A DNA stretch of 32,775 nucleotides. It comes from a virus (taxonomy: Duplodnaviria; Caudoviricetes). The position numbers and the translations under genes are program-made. The stretch is taken from IMG/VR virus record IMGVR_UViG_3300047669_001912, positions 1 through 32,775 of that record; one strand, 5' to 3'. Positions 16 to 31,991 of the stretch are shown piece by piece; within the stretch, counting starts at the first letter, position 1; every line of letters starts with the position of its first letter. The notes beneath the pieces were generated by a model. It did not search any database. It was given only the letters and a program-made list of their open reading frames with translations, and was not told the DNA's origin.

Positions 16-1041
16 ATGAGTAAAGCCCGAAATATGGCGTCATTTAAACGTAGTGACGGTACACTGAATTCGAACATCTATTCTAGAAAAGCTTCACCAT
101 CATTTTCAGGTACACCCACAGGTATTAGTGCTTCTCATATAACTACTGGAGTATTACCTGTTGGAGTTACTGGTGGTTCTGGTTTAACTGCTCTAGGAAC
201 AATTGGTTCTGGTACTTTATCAAGTGGTGTTACTGGTGCTGCAGCTGTACCCGCACAATCAGGACACTCAGGTAAATATCTAACAACGAATGCAACAGCC
301 ACATCTTGGTCAACAGTTGACGCCTTACCTACACAATCAGGACAATCTGGTAAATTTTTAACAACAGATGCTACAAACGCGTCTTGGGCAACACTCTCAC
401 AAGCAAGTATTCTCACTCAAAGTATGGCGGGTGGAAATAGAAACAGTCTTGAGGTACGTGGTTTAGATACTAGTGCTGGTGGGGGTGGAACAGGTATTAC
501 ATCTCTTATTTCTACTCATTATTCTTTTAATTCTTCCGGTGCTGATGGGGGTGGTAAACTTCTATTACGTAGAAGTAGAGACACCGTTTACTTGAACAAC
601 GATGCTGTTATGGCGAATGATTGTTTAGGTAAAGTAGTGTTTGGGGGTTCAGATTATACAGCATGGCAGGAAGGACCGGAGATTAGAGGTGTGGCACATC
701 AAGCTTGGAATAGTAGTAGTGTACAAGGTTCTTTTTTGTCATTCCATACTAAAGATGATGGTACATCAACACTTGATGAACGGATGCGAATTGATCATAA
801 TGGTAACGTTGGAATCGGGACAGATACTCCAACTGTTGCACTGCATGTTGTTGGTGATATTTATTGTACCGATATTAGTGTTGCGGATTTAAAAATGAGT
901 AATGAAAGACCAGGACATCCTGGGAATGATATAGATGGTACACATGGTTCATGGACGTTTCAGGAAGGAACGGAAAATATGTACCTTATAAATAGAAAGA
1001 GTGGTAAACATTTCAAAATAGTATTAGAGGAGATAGAATAA
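16..1041 (+). CDS. Tail fibre/fibre-like structural protein
   Basis: Gly/Ser/Thr-rich. Carries the ERMRIDHNGNVGIGTDTP motif and a C-terminal DLxMSNE...NDIDGTxGSWTFQEG...YLINRKSGK tail typical of marine T4-like fibre proteins. AAGGA SD upstream. Confidence 0.75.
   Translation: MSKARNMASFKRSDGTLNSNIYSRKASPSFSGTPTGISASHITTGVLPVGVTGGSGLTALGTIGSGTLSSGVTGAAAVPAQSGHSGKYLTTNATATSWSTVDALPTQSGQSGKFLTTDATNASWATLSQASILTQSMAGGNRNSLEVRGLDTSAGGGGTGITSLISTHYSFNSSGADGGGKLLLRRSRDTVYLNNDAVMANDCLGKVVFGGSDYTAWQEGPEIRGVAHQAWNSSSVQGSFLSFHTKDDGTSTLDERMRIDHNGNVGIGTDTPTVALHVVGDIYCTDISVADLKMSNERPGHPGNDIDGTHGSWTFQEGTENMYLINRKSGKHFKIVLEEIE
247..393 (+). repeat. Tandem 78-nt (26-aa) intragenic repeat, about 2 copies
   Basis: VPAQSGHSGKYLTTNATATSWSTVDA followed by LPTQSGQSGKFLTTDATNASWAT. 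Confidence 0.85.
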
Positions 1042-2180
1042 TGACCGTTTATTCTCGGACGCGAACAAGAACAGAACAAGGATTACCAGTACCTAGTGAG
1101 GAAACTAGGGGTGGTCTTTTAATGGCATCTAATGATGGTGCATATTGGCAATATCCAGGTAGTGCTCACTCAGCACTAGCATCAGGATGGAGGTATAGGT
1201 CAATATACACACATGGATATCTAGCAGCAGGTTATAAAGGTTCTAATGCATGGCGAGCTGTAAACAAAACATGGCATCAAACAGATACCACGTTATATTG
1301 TGGCGAACAGTTAGATAGAGAAGGTTCATATTTATCAGGTACATGGAGTGATCATAATGGATATATAGAGAATAATGGTCATACTCTTGCTGGTACAAAC
1401 CTATCTAGTTATAGTCTTGCTAATGGACAAACAAGAAAAATAACTACAACAGGTGGATTTTCATCTGCTGGGGTAACTTATGGATATGTAGGGTATAATC
1501 CACTAGCAGACGGATTAGTTTATGGTACTGCAGGATACGTGGGTAATGTAGGTGGTTGGAATTTTAGTGTGAGTGTTCATGATTGTGCTACCGCCTCAGG
1601 AATAAAAACACAAGAAGGAATGTGGGCAGGGGGTACAACTACCACAACTACTCATTCTTTACATTTTGCTTCAGAAGTCATGTATACCGGTCCTACAGCA
1701 CCAGCTAGTGGACTAGGTACAGGTTGTCAAGGAGAAAATAAAGGTTGGTTGATGAACGCGGGTAATAACAAATACTCTTATAATTGGTCTAATCGAACAA
1801 TGGGATCAGGTGGTACTTGGACGTATGGAACAGATGGACAATGTAAGGCGATTTCTTCTAAACACGGTCATCATTATGTAGGAACTGGTAGTAACGTGTC
1901 TCCAGGCCAAAATAAATTTGCCGATAGCAATGGAGCTCATATGTCATCCCCAGCTAAACATCATACAAATGGTGAAGAAAATCAAGAAGATGGTCAAGAT
2001 TGGGGTTATACATTGGGAGATTATAATGGACAACAAAACAATTGGACTGTAAAATATACATATTCAACTGATGCACAGACTGCACTAGGGGCGGCGGCTA
2101 TGCCTAAAGGGCATTATGGACAATCATCTGGTTTTTGTAGTACAGCTGCAGCATCTGTGTGTGATGTGGGGGTAAGTTAA
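1041..2180 (+). CDS. Gly-rich Kelch-like beta-propeller protein, putative tail adhesin/virion protein
   Basis: Recurrent G-aromatic-x-x-G blades (HGYLAAGY, EGMWAGG, KGWLMNAG, HHYVGTG, WGYTLGDY), each followed by strand-like segments. Start overlaps the fibre gene stop (TAATG). Confidence 0.55.
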   Translation: MTVYSRTRTRTEQGLPVPSEETRGGLLMASNDGAYWQYPGSAHSALASGWRYRSIYTHGYLAAGYKGSNAWRAVNKTWHQTDTTLYCGEQLDREGSYLSGTWSDHNGYIENNGHTLAGTNLSSYSLANGQTRKITTTGGFSSAGVTYGYVGYNPLADGLVYGTAGYVGNVGGWNFSVSVHDCATASGIKTQEGMWAGGTTTTTTHSLHFASEVMYTGPTAPASGLGTGCQGENKGWLMNAGNNKYSYNWSNRTMGSGGTWTYGTDGQCKAISSKHGHHYVGTGSNVSPGQNKFADSNGAHMSSPAKHHTNGEENQEDGQDWGYTLGDYNGQQNNWTVKYTYSTDAQTALGAAAMPKGHYGQSSGFCSTAAASVCDVGVS

Positions 2181-3166
2181 TGTCAATTCCTGATTTTGAA
2201 CCGGTGATTACTCTACCAGTAATTAAGGAGGGGCCAAAAACTACTACAACAAAAATAAGATATATTATAATTCCTGAAGGAGATATTAAGGAATATGAAT
2301 CAGGAGGTGGTTTTAATGATAAGAATTTTTATTGCGAGCAACATTATAATTTAATGGGGTTGAGTACGATAGCAATAAGTGATTCTTATTTAGAAACCAT
2401 TAGACCAATTTTAGGTAGGTCTTTCGAAGAAATAACAGAGGAAGAATTTTATTTTGGTACTGCACATTTTGGTGAAATACGAGATTCCGTTAAAGTTATG
2501 AAACAAGAAACTGGTGTTATTTGGGATTGGACTCCCGCACTACCTGAGGAAGTGTTTAAAAGTGCAGTAGATTTTTCTCAAGACATGAAAGATTTTACTT
2601 TATCATTTATGAAAAAATATGCAAAAGAAATTATAGAAAATGAATATAGTAAAAAATTAAAGTTTATTAAAAATGTATCTGAATTGGAAGCTGCAACCTG
2701 GGAAATTCAAAAACATGAAGCACGAGAATGGTTAACTTATGGGGCAGACGATCCTGCTCATATAACTCCGTTTTTAGATTATATTGCAACAGAAAGAAGT
2801 TTTGATAAAACCACATTATCAAATAAGATATTAGAAAAGGCGGAAGAATATCAAGATAGACTTTCTACTCTGTTAGTTGACTCCCAAAAACTATTAAAAA
2901 AAGCAGAATCATGTACAACAATATGGGATTTAAACATTATATATGAAGATTATTTTGGTATAATGATGCCGTCTGACCAAGCAGTAACATTAAAACGTTT
3001 GGATTCTGGTATAAAAGAAGATGGTGGAATTGATTACAATAGAAAAGGTTTACGAATGGCATTTTTTAATTCAGAGACAAATGCAAAAACAACAGAAGAT
3101 GATCCAAAAGCATTTTGGAAACCAGATCCTATTAATCCCTACTTGGGCAATAAATTAAATTTTTAA
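2180..3166 (+). CDS. Tail-fibre assembly chaperone-like protein (DUF4376-like helical domain)
   Basis: ELEAATWEIQKHEAREW...TPFLDYIATERS...LSNKILEKAEEY resembles the E..TW..Q..EA..W...TP.L..IA..R pattern of fibre-adjacent assembly proteins. Confidence 0.5.
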   Translation: MSIPDFEPVITLPVIKEGPKTTTTKIRYIIIPEGDIKEYESGGGFNDKNFYCEQHYNLMGLSTIAISDSYLETIRPILGRSFEEITEEEFYFGTAHFGEIRDSVKVMKQETGVIWDWTPALPEEVFKSAVDFSQDMKDFTLSFMKKYAKEIIENEYSKKLKFIKNVSELEAATWEIQKHEAREWLTYGADDPAHITPFLDYIATERSFDKTTLSNKILEKAEEYQDRLSTLLVDSQKLLKKAESCTTIWDLNIIYEDYFGIMMPSDQAVTLKRLDSGIKEDGGIDYNRKGLRMAFFNSETNAKTTEDDPKAFWKPDPINPYLGNKLNF

Positions 3167-4524
3167 TGTTTACAGAAATAAGTGAAAAATTAGTCCAACT
3201 ACAAAAAAAATCTAAATGTACCCCTCAACCATGCCAATCATGTTTAAAAAATCCTTGTTGTAGACATCCTGGCTATGCTACTTTAGAAAATGTAGAAAAA
3301 ATATATCTAAAATATGTAGATGGAGAACTAGTAAGAGAAGATAACATAAAATTTAAATCTAATTTAACATTTAAAGAATTTATAGAAGAATATTTTAATA
3401 TTAAAACCTCTGATACAATAGACAATTTTTGTGTATTTTTTCCCAAAACATTGGGTAATTTTGGGTGTGTGTTCAATAAAAGAAAAATTGTTGATAATAA
3501 AGACAATTTTAAAAATTGTCTACTGTGGGACGAAGATAGATTTAATAAAAATACAGCGTTTCCATTAGGTTGTATTAATAATGGTGCTTCGGTTCAAGAC
3601 AGAGAAGAATTGTTTTCAATTTATAATAAAAATTTTAGTAATAGTGTGGAAAGACTTATGAAACAAACAACTAATTTACCAGATATGTTACATGACAAAA
3701 CAGATATTGTAAGTAGCGATGTAAAAAATATAAAAGTAGATACGTGGATAAAAGATCATTTAAATTTTTCTCCAGAAGAAGAGAGAACATTAGAACTTGC
3801 CATTCAATTTGATAATGGTCAATCTGATTATACTTCTGCCAATTTTGTATCAAATACAGGAATAACACCATATAAACAAGTTCATCAATCATTTATGGAA
3901 TTGGAAACACGATATCATGCATTTAAATCCATTGTACGAAATCTAAGAGAAGCGGAAGTTCGATGCAAAATATTTGAAAGAGATATAAAAATTCAAAAAG
4001 ATGAATTAGAAAAAGAATTGATGATAATTGCATATGAAGATTTAATGTATGATGTAACTATTTTTAAACGAAAAATGACACAATGTTCACGAGAACTCAG
4101 AACATATTTAGATCTTCTTAATAAAGTAAAAGAAAAAGACTTAGCAGAATATTTAAAGGAAGACAAGGACGAAGAACGAAAATATTGGGTGGCTAGAATG
4201 TCAAAGCAAGCCGCGATGGATATTATATCATATGGTCGTATAGGTTCGGGTAATATGGATTCTATTTTGTTGATGCCAGAAGAAGATCAACTTGGTACAT
4301 TACAAGGTGCATTAAAGTTTTCTGGTTTATTGTCTTCAACAATAGGACAAATTAATAAACAAGTAGAAGGACAAGTTAATACTAAAGTATCACTTGAAGG
4401 ATTACAAATGCCAAAATTGGCAGATAGTAGAAAATTATTTGAAATAGAGTTAGAATTATATGAAAATGAAAATGAAAATATTCAGTATACCGATCAATCC
4501 AAAATTAACGGAACCTCAATTTAA
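3166..4524 (+). CDS. Fusion of an N-terminal YkgJ-like Cys-cluster domain with a conserved phage coiled-coil protein
   Basis: CQSCLKNPCC plus further Cys (GCVF, NCLLW, PLGC) in aa 1-160. Helical/coiled-coil C-part with YWVARMSKQAAMDIISYGRIGSGNMDS. Possible internal ATG at 3658. Confidence 0.55.
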   Translation: MFTEISEKLVQLQKKSKCTPQPCQSCLKNPCCRHPGYATLENVEKIYLKYVDGELVREDNIKFKSNLTFKEFIEEYFNIKTSDTIDNFCVFFPKTLGNFGCVFNKRKIVDNKDNFKNCLLWDEDRFNKNTAFPLGCINNGASVQDREELFSIYNKNFSNSVERLMKQTTNLPDMLHDKTDIVSSDVKNIKVDTWIKDHLNFSPEEERTLELAIQFDNGQSDYTSANFVSNTGITPYKQVHQSFMELETRYHAFKSIVRNLREAEVRCKIFERDIKIQKDELEKELMIIAYEDLMYDVTIFKRKMTQCSRELRTYLDLLNKVKEKDLAEYLKEDKDEERKYWVARMSKQAAMDIISYGRIGSGNMDSILLMPEEDQLGTLQGALKFSGLLSSTIGQINKQVEGQVNTKVSLEGLQMPKLADSRKLFEIELELYENENENIQYTDQSKINGTSI

Positions 4525-6112
4525 TGATTTTTTAGGTTTTTTACATACCTATAAAGATTATATACGCGACTTATATTTTACTTGTAGAATGCCACCTTTT
4601 CAACAAGATGCTATGGGTGATATTTTTAATGGTTCTCCAGATCATTTAGCTATTTTAGATAATGCTATAAACATATCAAAAGAGACAGGCATACCACTTT
4701 CTGCTACGTTTAATAATACATTAATTAGACCAGAGCAAAGTAATTTAGATTTATTCATACAAAATTTTAAACAAATTTATGATACCGGTTGTATTAAAAG
4801 TGCAACAATTCCCCACACACATTGGGTTGCTACAAAACAAATACAACATGCCTTCCCCGATTTAGAAATTAAAAATACAATATTACGAAATGTTACAGAG
4901 CCACGGGAAGTAGTTGCTCTAGGTGAAGTTGGATTTAACTATGTCAATTTAGATCGAGATTTAATGCGAGATCAAGATAAGTTAAAAGAAATGAAACGTG
5001 CTAAAGAATATGCGGGGGTTCAACTGTCATTATTAGCAAATGAGGGTTGTATAGGTAATTGTCCTATGATGGATGAACATTATGAATTTAATAATTCTAG
5101 AACAGGTGAAGTTCAATATTTTAATGATCCTATATCAAGAGTATCTTGTGAGAAATGGGATCAAGAAGATCTTGCGGTTCCATTAAAATCTGCTAATTTT
5201 CCCCCTTGGAGAGAAGATTGGGATGAATTGTTAGAGTATGTTGATGTTATTAAAATGCATGGAAGAGAATCTCCCGCGAGGTTAAATGAAACCATGCACA
5301 TAGTAAAAAATTATGCAGAAAATAAAGAAATATTATTTGATACATTTAATGATTTTATAGATGTTACAAATTTAGTAGATGCTCCTATAAATGTATGGCG
5401 TAAAAAAATAAAAACTTGTAAATTTGAATGTTGGGATTGTGGATATTGTGATAAAGTTATGAAAGCAAAAAGTGAACTTGTTATTAGTAATAAAATACGA
5501 CAAGTAACAAAAGAATTGGTCGATTCTGTTAATAAAGACATTATAATTGATATTGAAGGTTTGTCTTCTCAAAGAGTTGGTAATTTACTCAATAGTCTAG
5601 GGAGTGTTTCTACAAACTATTTGGAAATAGGATCTTATTTAGGTTTTAGTACATGTTCTGTGTTGAAAGATAATGATATCAATGTATTTTGTGTCGATAC
5701 ATGGAAAGAAAATTTACAACCATTAACTCAAGGATTAACTTTACCTGATAATTCTAAAGAAGAATTTATTAAAAATGTAAAAATATATAAAGGAAATAAT
5801 CCTGTAACAGCATATGAATGTGATTTATTTGATACAAATTTAAACGATATTAAAAATATTGATTTATTTTTTTACGATGGTCCTCATGATAGTAACTCCA
5901 TTGAAAAAGCAGTAATATATTATAAGGACTGTTTTGCAGATGAATGTATTTGTATTTTTGATGATGCTAATTTTACAGATGTTGTTATAGGGGCAAATAA
6001 GGGATTAGAACAAATCGATCATAATGTAATTTTTGAGAGAAAAATATTAAATCAAATAGAAGATGCTAGTCAATGGTGGAACGGCATATATATCGTGGTA
6101 ATTAAAAAATGA
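4460..6112 (+). CDS. U32-family (UbiU/UbiV/RlhA/TrhP-like) putative Fe-S protein fused to a class I SAM methyltransferase (Methyltransf_24-like)
   Basis: N-domain: VNLDRDLMRD, LLANEGCIGNCP, IKMHGRE (cf. U32 LKIEGR), CKFECWDCGYC. C-domain: YLEIGSYLGFST, VDTW, DLFFYDGPH, IFDD. True start may be 4466 or 4472. Confidence 0.65.
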   Translation: MKMKMKIFSIPINPKLTEPQFNDFLGFLHTYKDYIRDLYFTCRMPPFQQDAMGDIFNGSPDHLAILDNAINISKETGIPLSATFNNTLIRPEQSNLDLFIQNFKQIYDTGCIKSATIPHTHWVATKQIQHAFPDLEIKNTILRNVTEPREVVALGEVGFNYVNLDRDLMRDQDKLKEMKRAKEYAGVQLSLLANEGCIGNCPMMDEHYEFNNSRTGEVQYFNDPISRVSCEKWDQEDLAVPLKSANFPPWREDWDELLEYVDVIKMHGRESPARLNETMHIVKNYAENKEILFDTFNDFIDVTNLVDAPINVWRKKIKTCKFECWDCGYCDKVMKAKSELVISNKIRQVTKELVDSVNKDIIIDIEGLSSQRVGNLLNSLGSVSTNYLEIGSYLGFSTCSVLKDNDINVFCVDTWKENLQPLTQGLTLPDNSKEEFIKNVKIYKGNNPVTAYECDLFDTNLNDIKNIDLFFYDGPHDSNSIEKAVIYYKDCFADECICIFDDANFTDVVIGANKGLEQIDHNVIFERKILNQIEDASQWWNGIYIVVIKK

Positions 6113-6753
6113 AAATATTCCATCAATTTTTTGAAGATAGACTCATAACTTTTTTTGAAGTATCTGATAATTTTACTAATGAATTTAAGTCTCACATTTT
6201 TTCTATTGTAGATTCAAGTGGTGCTAGAGCTAACAATATGCTAGTAGGTGAAATAGAAGAAGAATATTATATTGATGTTGATGCTGTAAATGATTTCTAT
6301 GTAAATACATTTAAATCTATAATACACGCCCATCTACAACAAAATTCAAATTTACGGGTGTATGGTAACAAGGGTGATTTTAGTATTCATATTAATTCAT
6401 CTTGGGTGAATGTTATGAAAAAAAATGAATTTAATCCTGTCCATGTTCATGCAAAAAATGATTGTAATCTTGTGTATTGGATAAATGATTTTGATGGTAG
6501 TATGGAGAACTCGGCGGAAAAAAGTGAAAGAAATAATTTTTATAATTTAAAAACTCAAGAGATGGAAACTTCTAATGACTCATACAGAGGGGTTCATTGT
6601 ATATTAAGAAATAATCGTTGGTTGAATGTACCACCACGGAAAAATTTTGGTGTTATTTATGATTGGGATGTGATACATCAAGTGTATCCATTTGATGTAA
6701 ATGAGGAACGATTATCGTTTGTAATGAATATGAATGTGAATTATAATGGTTGA
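6109..6753 (+). CDS. Putative 2OG-Fe(II) oxygenase (2OG-FeII_Oxy_5-like)
   Basis: WVNVMKKNEFNPVHVH (HxH), distal IHQVYPF His, and ERLSFVMN (RxS) 2OG-binding motif. Confidence 0.75.
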   Translation: MKIFHQFFEDRLITFFEVSDNFTNEFKSHIFSIVDSSGARANNMLVGEIEEEYYIDVDAVNDFYVNTFKSIIHAHLQQNSNLRVYGNKGDFSIHINSSWVNVMKKNEFNPVHVHAKNDCNLVYWINDFDGSMENSAEKSERNNFYNLKTQEMETSNDSYRGVHCILRNNRWLNVPPRKNFGVIYDWDVIHQVYPFDVNEERLSFVMNMNVNYNG

Positions 6754-7621
6754 TATAATTTTAAATAACCAATGGTATGTGATATATCTTGCTGGTATAA
6801 TGATCATATCAGCATATGTACAACGTAATGGTCTTATATATCCCTTATTAAACAAATTAACACTATTTGTCCCTTCTAAACGTTTGTTTGTTGTGGCAAC
6901 AAGTGCTATCGCGGGTATATTACCTATTGCGGGCAGAGTTTCAATTTCTGCTGGTATCTTAGATACTATTGCACCAAAAGATGATAGACGAAAACATTAT
7001 GGTATACTTGACTATCTAAGTACACATCATTATTATCTCTGGTCTCCTTTTGAAAAATCTGTTATTATTCCAATGGCGGTTCTAAGTTTATCGTATGTAG
7101 AATTCATGCAATTAATGTGGCCATTGACTATAATTGCTATTGTTATTCCATTTGTTTTAATATTCACGTTACTTAAAGAAGATGATGTAATTATTCAGAC
7201 ACAAAAAGAAGAACGGATAAAAGTTGAATGGATAAATTGGAAGTTACTAGCAACAGTTGCAGTAATTATTATATTGGGTAATTTTGTACGAGAACATACA
7301 GACACAATAAAATCTTACTTAGAAAATAACAATTGGTCTATTGTTTCAGGAGCTTGGATAGGATTTGCTGGTAGTTTTTTATTGGGATCATCTAGTCGAT
7401 TTGCTGCGTTCACTGCAATTCTTACAAGTATTTTTGGTATAGAATATCTCCCATTATTTTTTGCTATAGATTACACTGGATATATGTTAAGTCCTACTCA
7501 TAAATGCTTTGCTATAGGAAAAATGTATTTTAATACTTCACTTGTTACGTATTATACCCACATAATTTTCCTATGTTCAATGATTATTGCAGTGGCGGTT
7601 TTACTTGTATCTTTTAGATAA
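6746..7621 (+). CDS. Polytopic membrane protein, DUF401/ion-transporter-superfamily-like
   Basis: About 8-9 hydrophobic segments. GILPIAGR, HHYYLWSP and GYMLSPTHKC resemble DUF401 motifs (GLLP..GG, H...WP, G.MLSP.H.C). Confidence 0.55.
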   Translation: MVDIILNNQWYVIYLAGIMIISAYVQRNGLIYPLLNKLTLFVPSKRLFVVATSAIAGILPIAGRVSISAGILDTIAPKDDRRKHYGILDYLSTHHYYLWSPFEKSVIIPMAVLSLSYVEFMQLMWPLTIIAIVIPFVLIFTLLKEDDVIIQTQKEERIKVEWINWKLLATVAVIIILGNFVREHTDTIKSYLENNNWSIVSGAWIGFAGSFLLGSSSRFAAFTAILTSIFGIEYLPLFFAIDYTGYMLSPTHKCFAIGKMYFNTSLVTYYTHIIFLCSMIIAVAVLLVSFR

Positions 7622-7630
7622 TGGTGGTAT

Positions 7631-7638
7631 TATAAATA
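7631..7638 (+). promoter_or_regulatory. T4-type late promoter TATAAATA
   Basis: Exact gp55 consensus in the intergenic gap before the neck genes. Confidence 0.8.
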
Positions 7639-7684: not shown

Positions 7685-8026
7685 GTGGCGTTAACCCTCC
7701 AAAAACAAACTCTTAATTTTGTGTTAGATCAAGGCTGCACTTTTTCCAAAGTTGTTGTCGCTAAAGATTCAGCATCAGTAAACGTAGCTATTTCATCTGG
7801 TACTGCTACTGCTAAAATGCGACAATCATATCATTCAGCAAATAATATATATAGTTTCACTGCAGGAATTGCGGGATCTAATGTAACAATCTCCATGACC
7901 TCTACCCAAACTTCAGCTATTCCAGCCGGGAATTATGTATATGATATTGAATATACACAATCAGGTGGAGATATAGAACGAGTAGTAGAAGGTCTTATCA
8001 CAGTTTCGCCGGAGGCAACAAAATAA
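7685..8026 (+). CDS. Small beta-sandwich virion protein upstream of gp13
   Basis: GTG start after AAGGAG. DQGxTF...A.MR....YVYDIE...RVVEG.ITV.P pattern common in marine T4-like phages. Confidence 0.65.
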   Translation: MALTLQKQTLNFVLDQGCTFSKVVVAKDSASVNVAISSGTATAKMRQSYHSANNIYSFTAGIAGSNVTISMTSTQTSAIPAGNYVYDIEYTQSGGDIERVVEGLITVSPEATK

Positions 8027-11294: not shown

Positions 11295-12928
11295 TGGCAA
11301 GTGAAAATTATTTAGGTAACCCGAATCTTAAGAACGTTGGTCAGAATATAGATTGGACGAAGACCACTCTCAAAGAATACATGAAGTGCAAAGAGTCTCC
11401 TGAATATTTTATAGAAAATTATGTTCAGATTGTACATCTAGACAAAGGTCTAGTGAAATTTAAGATGTATGATTATCAAAGAGATATGGTTAGAAAATTT
11501 AATGATAATCGTTTTGTAATCTGTAAACTACCTCGACAAACAGGAAAATCCACTACAATTATTTCCTTCCTTCTTCATTATATCCTGTTCAATGAAAGTG
11601 TTAACGTTGCTATTCTTGCCAACAAGGGTGCAACAGCAAGAGAACTCCTATCTAGATTACAACTTGCATACGAACATTTACCAAAATGGTTACAACAAGG
11701 TGCAGTTGTATGGAACAAAGGTAATATTGAAATAGAGAATGGGTCTAAAGTTATTGCCTCAGCAACTTCTAGTTCTGCTGTTCGAGGTAGTTCATTTAAT
11801 ATCATTTTTCTTGATGAGTTTGCTCACGTTCCACAAAATATAGCAGAACAATTCTTCACCTCTGTTTATCCTACAATTTCTTCTGGTGAATCGACTAAGG
11901 TACTTATTGTTTCGACTCCACTTGGACTGAATATGTTCTATAAAATGTGGATAGAAGCAGAAGAAAAAAGAAGTGACTATGTACCAATTGCAGTTCATTG
12001 GTCAGAGATGCCGGGGAGAGATGCAAAGTGGAAAGAGGAAACAATACGTAATACTTCTGAATTACAGTTCACACAGGAATTTGAATGTGAATTTGTGGGG
12101 TCAACCTATACATTAATTGCTCCATCTAAATTGAGAACGTTGGTTTTTGCCAATCCAATACACAGTAATAATCACTTGGATGTATTTCAAGAACCAATAA
12201 AAAATCATGTATATGCATTGATAGCCGATACTGCTCAAGGAAAAGGTGTAGATTATTCAGCCTTTATTGTATTTGATGTTACTAAGACACCCTATAGACA
12301 AGTAGCAAAATTTAAAGATAATACTATTTCACCCTTATTGTATCCTAATGTAATTTACAATGTGGGGAATAAGTATAATATGGCTCATGTTTTGATTGAG
12401 GTGAATGATATTGGTTCTCAAGTTGCGGATACTATACACTATGATTTAGAGTATGAAAACATAATGATTGTTACTCAGAGAGGGAGAGCTGGTCAACAAA
12501 TTGGTGGTGGGTTTACAAAGAACATTCAGTTAGGACTAAGAACGAGTAAACAAATTAAGAGAATTGGATGTGCAACTCTAAAAGATATGATAGAACAAGA
12601 ACAATTGATTCTTCCAGATTTTGATACGATTAGTGAACTTACTACATTTGCTCTACGAAATAATACATATCAAGCAGAAGAAGGTTCTCATGATGATTTG
12701 GCGATGTGTTTAGTTATATTTTCGTGGTTGGTGAATCAACGATATTTTAAGGAATTGACAAATATGGATATCAGAAAACAGTTGTGGGAAGAACAAATGG
12801 AAACTTTAGAACAAGATATGTTGCCGTTTGGAATTATAGATTCCGGATTAGAAGAAGAAACTTTTAAAGATACTGGTGGGCAAACCTGGACAGTTGATGA
12901 TAGTAATGATAGAAGATTATATAATTAA
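11294..12928 (+). CDS. gp17: Terminase large subunit gp17
   Basis: PRQTGKST Walker A; IIFLDEFAHV Walker B; STPLG; HDDLAM nuclease motif. Confidence 0.97.
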   Translation: MASENYLGNPNLKNVGQNIDWTKTTLKEYMKCKESPEYFIENYVQIVHLDKGLVKFKMYDYQRDMVRKFNDNRFVICKLPRQTGKSTTIISFLLHYILFNESVNVAILANKGATARELLSRLQLAYEHLPKWLQQGAVVWNKGNIEIENGSKVIASATSSSAVRGSSFNIIFLDEFAHVPQNIAEQFFTSVYPTISSGESTKVLIVSTPLGLNMFYKMWIEAEEKRSDYVPIAVHWSEMPGRDAKWKEETIRNTSELQFTQEFECEFVGSTYTLIAPSKLRTLVFANPIHSNNHLDVFQEPIKNHVYALIADTAQGKGVDYSAFIVFDVTKTPYRQVAKFKDNTISPLLYPNVIYNVGNKYNMAHVLIEVNDIGSQVADTIHYDLEYENIMIVTQRGRAGQQIGGGFTKNIQLGLRTSKQIKRIGCATLKDMIEQEQLILPDFDTISELTTFALRNNTYQAEEGSHDDLAMCLVIFSWLVNQRYFKELTNMDIRKQLWEEQMETLEQDMLPFGIIDSGLEEETFKDTGGQTWTVDDSNDRRLYN

Positions 12929-13404
12929 GTAAAAGGATCTATATCACCAAAGTTAACTTCTGTGGGTGGGTGGTTTATTTCTGTTATTAAATCCTCAATT
13001 TTATTAAGTAAATCAGGTCTTTCCTTTTTTAATCTAGTCAGAAAACTAATAGAACCTGTGACTAGTTGATCTGGTCGAATAGTTAATCTTTTTCCTATTT
13101 TTCTTTTATTAGATATTTCAAGGTGTTTGGGATTTACACAAGATGGATTGAAACAAGTTTGGGTTATTACTTCATGATCAGCAATTTCACCGTGAAGTCC
13201 AGTTGAGGGGGAAAACATACCATACATCATTACTGCAAATCTACTAGCAGGCATGGTTCTTCCCATAACGGAAAACATTCCATGTCCTGTTTTATTTTTT
13301 GCAGCAAGCCAAATATGACATTTTGTATTTGTCTCAGAGCGATCAACTTTTTTAAGAAATCTCTTTGTTATACTTTTACTATCCCAGAATTTAACTTTGT
13401 CCAT
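12925..13404 (-). CDS. HNH (HNH_3/T7 gp2.8-like) endonuclease homologue, catalytic residues apparently degenerate
   Basis: RFLKKVD..CHIWLAAK...GHG.F...ASR...QTCFNPSCVNPKHL. AAAAAGG upstream on the minus strand. Stop overlaps the gp17 stop (TTAA). Confidence 0.75.
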   Translation of the reverse strand: MDKVKFWDSKSITKRFLKKVDRSETNTKCHIWLAAKNKTGHGMFSVMGRTMPASRFAVMMYGMFSPSTGLHGEIADHEVITQTCFNPSCVNPKHLEISNKRKIGKRLTIRPDQLVTGSISFLTRLKKERPDLLNKIEDLITEINHPPTEVNFGDIDPFT

Positions 13405-30980: not shown

Positions 30981-31991
30981 ATGCGAATTATAGATGATGT
31001 CAAATTAGATTTTAGCGATGTGCTAATATCCCCCAAAAGATCACAACTTACCTCACGTAAAGACGCAGACCTCACCAGATCATTTACCTTTAAACATTCA
31101 CACCATAAATGGAGTGGTATTCCCATAATTGCCGCCAATATGGATCATACAGGAACTAATGCTATGGCTCATGTTCTTATGGGATACCCTATGCTTACAG
31201 CTCTATGTAAGTTTGTCGAATCTACAGAGTGGGGGTGGAATAAGAACATAATAAGAACTATCGGATTAGACCAAAATCTAGACAAGTTAGCCTATGATTC
31301 TGACACAGCGCCATGGATTTGTCTTGATGTAGCAAATGGATATACAGAACGATTTAATGATTATGTTTCCTTGATGAGAGAACACGAAGCAACCAAAGAT
31401 AAAATAATCATAGCTGGAAATGTATGTACACCAGAAGCTACAGAGCAGATACTTCTTGCTGGCGCAGATGTTGTGAAAATTGGTATTGGGCCTGGAAGTG
31501 TTTGTACGACTCGGAAAATGACAGGGGTAGGATATCCACAACTTTCAGCCACGATAGAATGTGCTGATGCGGCTCATGGTTTGGGTGGACACATTATTAC
31601 TGATGGTGGATGTACGGTGGTAGGAGACATTGCTAAAGCATTTGGTGCTGGTGCTGACTTTGTAATGTTAGGTGGAATGCTCGCAGGTCATTGGGAATGT
31701 GCATGGGATGATGAAGCGGAAGATCCAGAAGTTACAGGTACAATGACATTCTATGGTATGTCCTCTGATGATGCCCAACTAAAATACTACGGAGAAAAAC
31801 AATCTCATCGTGCATCTGAAGGAAAAAAAGTTCAAGTTCCATATCGGGGTAATGTTGCAGACACAATACAAGATATTTTGGGTGGACTAAGAAGCGCGTG
31901 TACTTACGCTGGAGCCAGAAGTATAAAATCATTACCTAAGTGTACTACATTTGTAAAAGTAAATAGACAATTGAATGAGGTATTTTCATGA
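30981..31991 (+). CDS. guaC: GMP reductase (type 1)
   Basis: KLDFSDVLISPKRS.L.SR; AANMD; CLDVANGY; GIGPGSVCTTR; RASEGK; ILGGLRSACTY; no CBS domain. Confidence 0.92.
   Translation: MRIIDDVKLDFSDVLISPKRSQLTSRKDADLTRSFTFKHSHHKWSGIPIIAANMDHTGTNAMAHVLMGYPMLTALCKFVESTEWGWNKNIIRTIGLDQNLDKLAYDSDTAPWICLDVANGYTERFNDYVSLMREHEATKDKIIIAGNVCTPEATEQILLAGADVVKIGIGPGSVCTTRKMTGVGYPQLSATIECADAAHGLGGHIITDGGCTVVGDIAKAFGAGADFVMLGGMLAGHWECAWDDEAEDPEVTGTMTFYGMSSDDAQLKYYGEKQSHRASEGKKVQVPYRGNVADTIQDILGGLRSACTYAGARSIKSLPKCTTFVKVNRQLNEVFS

Follow-up and report, generated by a model that had tools for sequence, protein, structure and literature searches.

A widespread four-gene block joins a Kelch-like propeller to a U32-like/methyltransferase enzyme beside the fibre genes of tailed phages

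The gene run in the window

The window analysed here is the 32.8-kb contig (32,775 nucleotides) of the IMG/VR virus record IMGVR_UViG_3300047669_001912. It comes from a T4-like myovirus in which the neck, terminase, sheath, portal, gp23 and UvsW genes are identified, and its DNA is seen in seawater and ice metagenomes. Ahead of the neck genes lie seven plus-strand open reading frames (ORFs) that cover positions 16–7621 with zero gaps, successive ORFs overlapping by 1, 1, 1, 65, 4 and 8 nt (Table 1). The fourth (3166–4524) and the fifth (4460–6112) ORFs encode two domains each, and their overlap is 53 nt if the fifth starts at its third Met, at 4472, as the N-termini of its homologs suggest. 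A first-pass annotation, made from the sequence alone, had described this gap-free run and a late promoter that closes it; both are borne out, the latter by an intergenic box, TATAAATA, which we take to be a T4 late promoter box. Surveys of related loci resolve the run into a fixed unit of four genes and optional companions. The unit encodes a predicted propeller, a helper and a coiled-coil protein (together, the trio), and an enzyme with a U32-like and a methyltransferase domain. This module is real, widespread and uncharacterised, it is expressed late in the cultured phage P-HM2, and the mechanism proposed below is no more than plausible.

The PHROGs matched by ORFs 2–5 all have function-less annotations (PHROG 1458 in the case of ORF 5). 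The fusion of a Cys-rich domain to the coiled coil in ORF 4 is not an assembly artefact because a single contig from a separate seawater run, not flagged as a possible source of the window, spans 136–5077 with 5 differences. RNA runs yielded only short scattered contigs, which cannot show transcription.

Table 1. Features of the gene run and its flanks in the window
ORF	Feature	Position	Strand	Basis or remark
1	Upstream tail-fibre-like protein, 341 amino acids	16–1041	+	PHROG 9942 tail fiber, E 1.4e-12; outside the fixed core
	Candidate T4 late promoter, TATAAATA	987–994	+	54 nt upstream of the propeller; may follow from codons
2	Core gene 1, predicted Kelch beta-propeller of six blades; short anchor-like segment at the N-terminus	1041–2180	+	PHROG 1417, model, Foldseek
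3	Core gene 2, likely fibre-assembly (chaperone-like) protein	2180–3166	+	PHROG 1604/10301/2618, no assigned function
4	Accessory 8-Cys domain, N-terminal 170 amino acids, fused to core gene 3	3166–3675	+	Alignment
4	Core gene 3, helical coiled-coil protein	3721–4524	+	PHROG 1409; alignment; conserved columns over 72 loci
5	Core gene 4, N-terminal domain: predicted TIM barrel, remotely related to the U32 family; likely iron-sulfur (Fe-S) enzyme	4460–5500	+	Profile homology, model
5	Core gene 4, C-terminal domain: class I S-adenosylmethionine (SAM) methyltransferase	5500–6112	+	PF13578, E 2.8e-9
6	Accessory 2-oxoglutarate (2OG)-Fe(II) oxygenase	6109–6753	+	PF13759, E 2.3e-8; PHROG 81
7	Accessory DUF401/ion-transporter-like membrane protein (permease)	6746–7621	+	PF04165, E 2.5e-8; alignment
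	T4 late promoter box, TATAAATA	7631–7638	+	Intergenic; ahead of LtfC-like and neck genes

Linkage and co-evolution of the core genes

In the survey centred on the U32-like gene (34 non-redundant viral loci in which it is flanked by at least 4.5 kb on the upstream and 3 kb on the downstream side), the coiled coil is present in all 34 loci and the propeller, the helper and the methyltransferase in 33 each, compared with 20 for an oxygenase (0–5 detected per locus), 17 for the permease, 9 for halogenases, 7 for a dUTPase-fold gene and 3 for the 8-Cys domain. The propeller-anchored survey (19 loci plus the best 80 of 426; 34 non-redundant loci with 4 kb downstream) finds the helper, the coiled coil and the U32-like gene in 34 of 34 loci, the methyltransferase in 33, the permease in 26 and an oxygenase in 24, and anchoring on the coiled coil (the best 80 of 579 confirmed matches) recovers the U32-like gene in 79 of 79 new loci, not dereplicated. 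Only the best-scoring subsets were surveyed, so that remote stand-alone copies could escape. Among the highly redundant annotated-phage records, 126 were matched by U32, 121 by the propeller, 128 by the coiled coil and 12 by the permease. Given these reciprocal counts, the propeller, helper, coiled-coil and U32-like/methyltransferase genes form a fixed unit, and the oxygenase, the permease and the Cys domain are optional. The gene-neighbourhood survey that the first-pass annotation had proposed thus finds its propeller, chaperone-like, coiled-coil and U32 genes together almost without exception; its view of all seven genes as one cassette has to be abandoned, as the oxygenase, the permease and the Cys domain assort independently, part of what the annotation itself had named as refuting it, and the four core genes do not. 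A search of mostly open-access literature found no publication on the four-gene core, which does not prove its absence from print.

The linkage persists although the order of the helper and the coiled coil varies between loci, and in some loci halogenase, oxygenase or radical SAM genes are interposed inside the block. One phage lineage (L216, L218, L220, L224, L225, L228, L237, L239) carries between the helper and the U32-like gene a radical SAM gene of ~332 amino acids with a C-terminal Cys cluster. The genes upstream of the block show fibre hallmarks, namely Peptidase_S74, Mtd_N and Laminin_G_3. The exception in the U32-centred survey is the Ralstonia phiKZ-like jumbo phage RP31, where the coiled coil (E 6.5e-34), U32, permease and a propeller-like gene stand in a row after the gene for a collagen-repeat virion protein; here ORF139 scores weakly against the propeller profile (16 bits), and ORF138 is marginal. 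RP31 also encodes a second tailoring-like cluster, ORF72–76 in the gene table of PMC5468394, with radical SAM/Fe-S genes and an MgoB homolog adjoining YomR-like genes.

The propeller, the helper and the coiled coil co-evolve as a group. Across 72 loci, pairwise identities correlate with rho of 0.72–0.79 within the trio and 0.82 between the U32-like domain and the methyltransferase, compared with a Spearman rho of 0.18–0.29 between the enzyme and the trio, a contrast that may be inflated because the loci were drawn from different anchors. The trees share 30 strong splits; the enzyme tree contradicts 11 of the 53 strong splits of the trio, versus 0–1 conflicts inside either group (the trio; U32 plus methyltransferase). 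The log-likelihood difference (delta lnL) for the propeller is 144 on the helper plus coiled-coil tree and 1212 on the enzyme tree, and for the U32-like domain 719 on the trio tree and 301 on the methyltransferase tree. Since approximately unbiased (AU) tests (2000 replicates) reject every non-self tree, even inside the trio, these differences are informative by their magnitude alone. The window and locus L025 are 77% identical in the U32-like domain and 30% in the propeller, and the respective values for L034 are 58% and 41%. Because the enzyme tree conflicts with the trio trees, the enzyme, although always present, has evidently been exchanged between trios: it is required but interchangeable. 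The co-evolution of the trio in the face of a conflicting enzyme tree is what is new here; the first-pass annotation had asked whether the propeller, chaperone, coiled-coil and U32 genes co-evolve, which they do within the trio and, at depth, not between enzyme and propeller.

Core proteins, accessory genes and promoter boxes

The model of the propeller (from 33 sequences; predicted local distance difference test, pLDDT, 74; predicted template-modelling score, pTM, 0.74; residues 1–47 and 134–171 unreliable) has six predicted four-stranded blades that superpose on Kelch domains, and the top Foldseek matches are Kelch/SAKe6 domains (E 6e-12 to 5e-10; template-modelling score 0.56–0.60 by query, 0.59–0.60 for the best), which supports the Kelch-like label of the first-pass annotation. 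Direct searches of Pfam, NCBIfam and PDB sequences left the propeller proteins unnamed, with no match to Pfam Kelch; blade-to-blade sequence similarity is weak (best probability 68), and in one Atlas cluster of look-alikes Kelch is found on 22% of the members. There are 1–3 propeller copies per locus, the other core genes being almost always single, and some homologs carry immunoglobulin (Ig) or Gly-rich extensions. The N-termini match adjoining non-module proteins in 17 of 56 homologs, versus 0 of 168 shuffles, and are interchangeable segments.

The helper gene follows the propeller gene, and the C-terminal domain of a helper homolog matches Pmp6_0036 (E 3e-11), which sits directly 3' of the tail fiber gene Pmp6_0035 of Pasteurella phage Pmp6. 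Presumably the helper is Tfa-like; searches for Tfa families in Pfam, PHROG and NCBIfam gave no match for the helper proteins, so the earlier chaperone label draws support from the gene position of homologs and none from a family match. Known pairs of a tail fibre and an assembly protein or adhesin include P2 gpH/gpG, lambda Stf/Tfa and T4 gp37/gp38. The block resembles them in its position 3' of fibre genes, in the helper homolog that occupies an assembly-gene slot in Pmp6 and in forming a co-evolving unit, and differs from them in the missing Pfam/PHROG Tfa match, the extra coiled-coil partner, the Kelch head and the constant enzyme partner.

The coiled-coil protein has a conserved C-terminal motif, W..R..KQ...D....GR...GN, across the 72 loci; Pfam, NCBIfam and PDB sequence searches gave it no name and the Atlas no usable match. 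A second, short gene of this family lies downstream of the enzyme in locus L082 (9925–10362). The 8-Cys domain is a stand-alone gene in L018 and L021, and all 8 Cys are kept in the four aligned sequences. It may resemble the YkgJ/FliB-type Fe-S domain (PF03692); none of the four has a match to this or any other Pfam family at E 0.2, and a homolog search found none of similar length. The Cys-cluster protein of the first-pass annotation is therefore left with its 8 Cys and no family match found.

The window enzyme has no match to Pfam U32 (PF01136), the best E among 32 members being 0.14, nor any in NCBIfam, and a PDB sequence search with the U32-like domain gave nothing significant. A profile search with this domain retrieved 696 relatives at E <= 0.001. 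Among 63 distant relatives scanned, one, P0264, matches Pfam U32 (E 1.4e-9), and hhalign aligns the enzyme with P0264 over the full length (probability 99.3, E 4.9e-20, 300 columns); the earlier U32 label thus draws indirect support, through remote homology, and none from a direct Pfam match. The model (pLDDT 85) shows eight alternating beta/alpha units, a predicted TIM barrel. Seven Cys are conserved in at least 90% of the 72 loci, and their two groups (C197/C201/C230 and C320/C324/C327/C330) suggest one or two Fe-S sites. The likeness to the U32 Fe-S hydroxylases (RlhA, TrhP, UbiU/UbiV; PF01136) lies in this remote full-length homology and the predicted barrel and, for RlhA as described in PMC5727448, in Cys residues that are kept both within the barrel and in a group towards the C-terminus. 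The differences are a Cx3C spacing in the motif N194-E195-G-C197-x-G-x-C201, followed by C230, versus the Cx6C of RlhA (E161/C169/C176; PMC5727448), similarity below Pfam detection, a C-terminal Cx3Cx2Cx2C motif, the methyltransferase fusion and a late gene in a phage. Because the Cys spacing departs from that of RlhA, the enzyme is called U32-like and not a U32 member. The conserved residues of the methyltransferase domain are E389-x-G391, D473 and D501-D502-x-N504; in some lineages this domain is a separate gene.

The fibre (PHROG), methyltransferase (PF13578), 2OG oxygenase (PF13759) and DUF401 labels of the first-pass annotation are confirmed by direct matches. The fibre-like protein encoded by ORF 1 matches related loci in short stretches only, at ~37–65% identity. 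The oxygenase of L015 is just 50% identical to that of the window, while the core genes of this locus are 76–87% identical. The permease has the invariant motifs H-H-Y-Y and S-P-x-H-K-C, and in S-CAM4 it lies ~56 kb away from the block. Directly 5' of the permease there is an outer-membrane-barrel-like gene in L218, L220 and L224 and a TonB-receptor-like gene in L237, calls made by eye and with no Pfam match. Relatives of DUF401 in bacteria (43 of 151 genomes, best E 2e-14) were rejected as context for the permease because they are too distant, and a literature search on DUF401 function found nothing, several of its matches being probably longer DUF numbers.

In this AT-rich window the late-box motif occurs 6 times, compared with 6.4 expected by chance, so the box within ORF 1 is only a candidate. 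Its offset to the propeller is the same (–52) in L134 and L143 and –23/–27 in L144 and L107, and no late box was found before the propeller in the close relative L015. Among distinct upstream stretches, which were not dereplicated by lineage, 6 of 64 contain the motif close to the first propeller and 22 of 85 close to the coiled coil, versus 58 of 2760 random stretches, and a late promoter is not established as a conserved feature of the block. Directly 3' of the intergenic late box lies an LtfC-like fibre-assembly gene (7685–8026, plus strand).

A possible role in tailoring virion fibres

The cultured phages P-HM2, P-SSM4, Syn19, S-RIM2 and S-CAM4 carry the block. The four P-HM2 genes, PHM2_098–101, correspond to T4-GC 351–354, and the expression data given in PMC5082946 place all four late, in light and dark. 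According to the genome comparison in PMC3037559, the block is unique to P-HM2 with respect to the co-isolated P-HM1, and its cluster labels recur 4–6 times among 16 genomes, i.e. in about 5 of the 16 cyanophages. The virion table of that paper, which covers three phages, does not list the block; the three cyanophages with proteomes there probably lack it themselves.

Because the genes are kept together in very different phages and are late in P-HM2, the block likely adds chemical decorations to a virion fibre. The specific reading preferred here, a tentative one, is that the U32-like/methyltransferase enzyme hydroxylates and O-methylates, late in infection, a fibre-associated propeller complex or the fibre joined to it. 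The trio would be one assembly unit, with the propeller as the tip or docking adaptor, the helper as a fibre-assembly protein and the coiled coil as the scaffold, which would build a Kelch-propeller fibre-tip complex late in infection. The U32-like domain would need no O2 for its hydroxylation, like known U32 enzymes, which use prephenate, and the methyltransferase fused to it would cap the new hydroxyl. Because the enzyme is swapped between trios, it would recognise an invariant feature, not a lineage-specific surface. Oxygenases, halogenases, radical SAM enzymes and Cys domains would act as optional, diversifying tailors, with the permease supplying a metal or co-substrate. Cellular clusters with some likeness are the predicted bacterial surface-protein tailoring clusters of PMC2938197, in which a hydroxylase and a sulfotransferase are linked to a tail-collar or collagen-like protein proposed as the substrate; those use 2OG hydroxylases and sulfation, whereas the constant enzyme here is U32-like with a methyltransferase.

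The bacterial relatives of the enzyme are relevant in this respect. At ten loci from bacterial genome collections the enzyme homolog comes without the methyltransferase, and its neighbours include SPASM radical SAM maturases, type I secretion genes, DUF6445, a GLUG adhesin, a sulfotransferase, GNAT and CysD, a context that, as we infer, points to peptide or protein substrates. In Campylobacterota (L001–L004, L006), the homologs adjoin SPASM radical SAM maturases, DUF6445 and a TPR protein, or lie directly 5' of a type I secretion operon; two copies of U32 occur in L001. In Smithella/Syntrophaceae (L008–L010; ~170–14260 in L008), the homolog clusters with a GLUG-repeat adhesin, a sulfotransferase, an ATP-grasp enzyme, a protein of 259 amino acids without known function, GNAT, TauE and CysD/CysN, in what looks like an adhesin-tailoring locus, similar in this linkage of enzymes to a fibre-like protein to the clusters of PMC2938197. 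A contig filed under a Cloacimonadota metagenome-assembled genome (L005, 1–3937) combines U32, dCTP deaminase and NAD-ligase genes and may be viral because RP31, too, has a dCTP deaminase near U32.

Several observations weigh against the fibre-tailoring reading. The low enzyme–trio correlation, the conflicting splits and the poor fit of the U32-like domain to the trio tree argue against a tight, specific interface between enzyme and propeller. The propeller is not hypervariable, unlike a typical host-range adhesin: its mean identity is 35%, compared with 30% for the helper and 33% for the coiled coil, it is 82% where that of U32 is 89%, and between L015 and the window the respective values are 86% and 87%. 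As the propeller is no more variable than its partners, neither the 'adhesin' label nor the receptor-binding role that the first-pass annotation assigned to it is shown. Mass spectrometry of RP31 virions (32 proteins, from gel bands; PMC5468394) detected ORF133 and ORF140 and, in those bands, none of ORF135–139, including the propeller-like ORF139; RP31 also has no methyltransferase beside U32. The characterised U32 hydroxylases described in PMC5727448, PMC6599085 and PMC10990095 act on RNA or quinone precursors, and neither propeller nor coiled coil was found in five enzyme-bearing bacterial draft genomes. The N-terminus of the window's own propeller matched no neighbour, and a fibre-shaft motif profile (9 instances) picked out only 2 of 103 propellers and none of 315 controls or 103 shuffles, too weak a signal to serve as evidence on propellers.

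An unlikely alternative is a small-molecule pathway, in which the enzymes would make a hydroxylated, O-methylated and sometimes halogenated aromatic or amino-acid derivative, e.g. a chelator or pigment, import of a precursor or metal would fall to the permease and the outer-membrane barrels, and the trio would bind or display the product. The interchangeable enzyme, the halogenases counted above, which are Trp-halogenase homologs, and the barrel or TonB-receptor-like genes beside the permease in some lineages fit this scheme, and cyanophage oxygenase/halogenase arrays are read as secondary-metabolite pathways in PMC2938197 and PMC7824862. The Syn9 arrays, which combine dioxygenases and halogenases with a dUTPase-fold gene and are probable metabolite pathways according to PMC2938197, and the related cluster of PMC7824862 resemble the surroundings of the core in their 2OG oxygenases, Trp-halogenase homologs and dUTPase-fold protein; the descriptions given there do not name U32, propeller, helper or coiled coil, and the window has a single oxygenase and no halogenase. 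However, the fixed core lacks a scaffold-building enzyme, its constant partners are non-enzymatic proteins among fibre genes, and its timing is late.

Slightly less probable again is an intracellular role of the propeller, the trio presenting a protein of the host or a component of its envelope to the enzyme in the late phase of infection, for receptor masking, lysis control or counter-defence, without becoming part of the virion. The best fold matches are to peptide-binding adaptors such as Keap1 and KLHL17, polar residues are conserved on the propeller (K269, K274, E312, E313, N314, Q332, N334), and the absence of ORF139 from the RP31 virion proteins listed in PMC5468394 would be expected. 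Yet the N-terminal segments shared with adjoining fibre-like proteins and the Ig or Gly-rich extensions weigh against this role, and cyanobacteria and Ralstonia, distant hosts, would need a common target.

Methoxylation of RNA, with the trio merely adjacent, is distinctly improbable. TrhP and TrmR are a pair that produces methoxy-modified RNA bases, and the U32 and methyltransferase domains might act in the same way on tRNA or rRNA. Several homologs carry the source name 'predicted O-methyltransferase YrrM', and hydroxylation of RNA by known U32 enzymes is described in PMC5727448. This would leave the near-obligate link to the trio unexplained; the enzyme has no NCBIfam match, the bacterial homologs adjoin genes for the tailoring of peptides and adhesins, and RNA-modification genes were not found among their scanned neighbours. 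A hitchhiking island of functionally unlinked genes in the fibre region, least probable of all, would fit the accessory nature of the block (in P-HM2 and not P-HM1, about 5 of 16 cyanophages in PMC3037559), the disagreement of the enzyme and trio trees and the free assortment of oxygenase and permease, but is already made unlikely by a linkage that persists through reordering, insertions and enzyme replacement and in a phiKZ-like phage, the swapped enzyme being, in the loci examined, always replaced and never lost.

A more far-reaching version of the fibre-tailoring reading, rather doubtful at present, is that unrelated tailed phages share a virion-tailoring machine, in which the trio would recruit a U32-type Fe-S enzyme to the tip of the fibre, hydroxyl and methoxy groups would be placed on protein without need of O2, and oxygenases, radical SAM enzymes and halogenases as plug-ins would add lineage-specific chemical patterns that tune host recognition. 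If so, these patterns, possibly including metal-chelating groups, would amount to an enzymatically written surface code on phage particles, U32 chemistry would gain a new class of substrates beside RNA and quinones, and many orphan oxygenases of aquatic myoviruses would be explained. Few 'auxiliary metabolic genes' are as common in aquatic phages as those for 2OG oxygenases and halogenases, and a fixed late core in which a tailoring enzyme is linked to a trio associated with fibres is a concrete target, for which P-HM1 and P-HM2 provide a natural pair without and with the block.

Elsewhere in the window, a free-standing HNH endonuclease gene lies on the opposite strand between the terminase and tail sheath genes (12925–13404, minus strand), and an IMPDH/GMP reductase family gene is located at 30981–31991 (plus strand).

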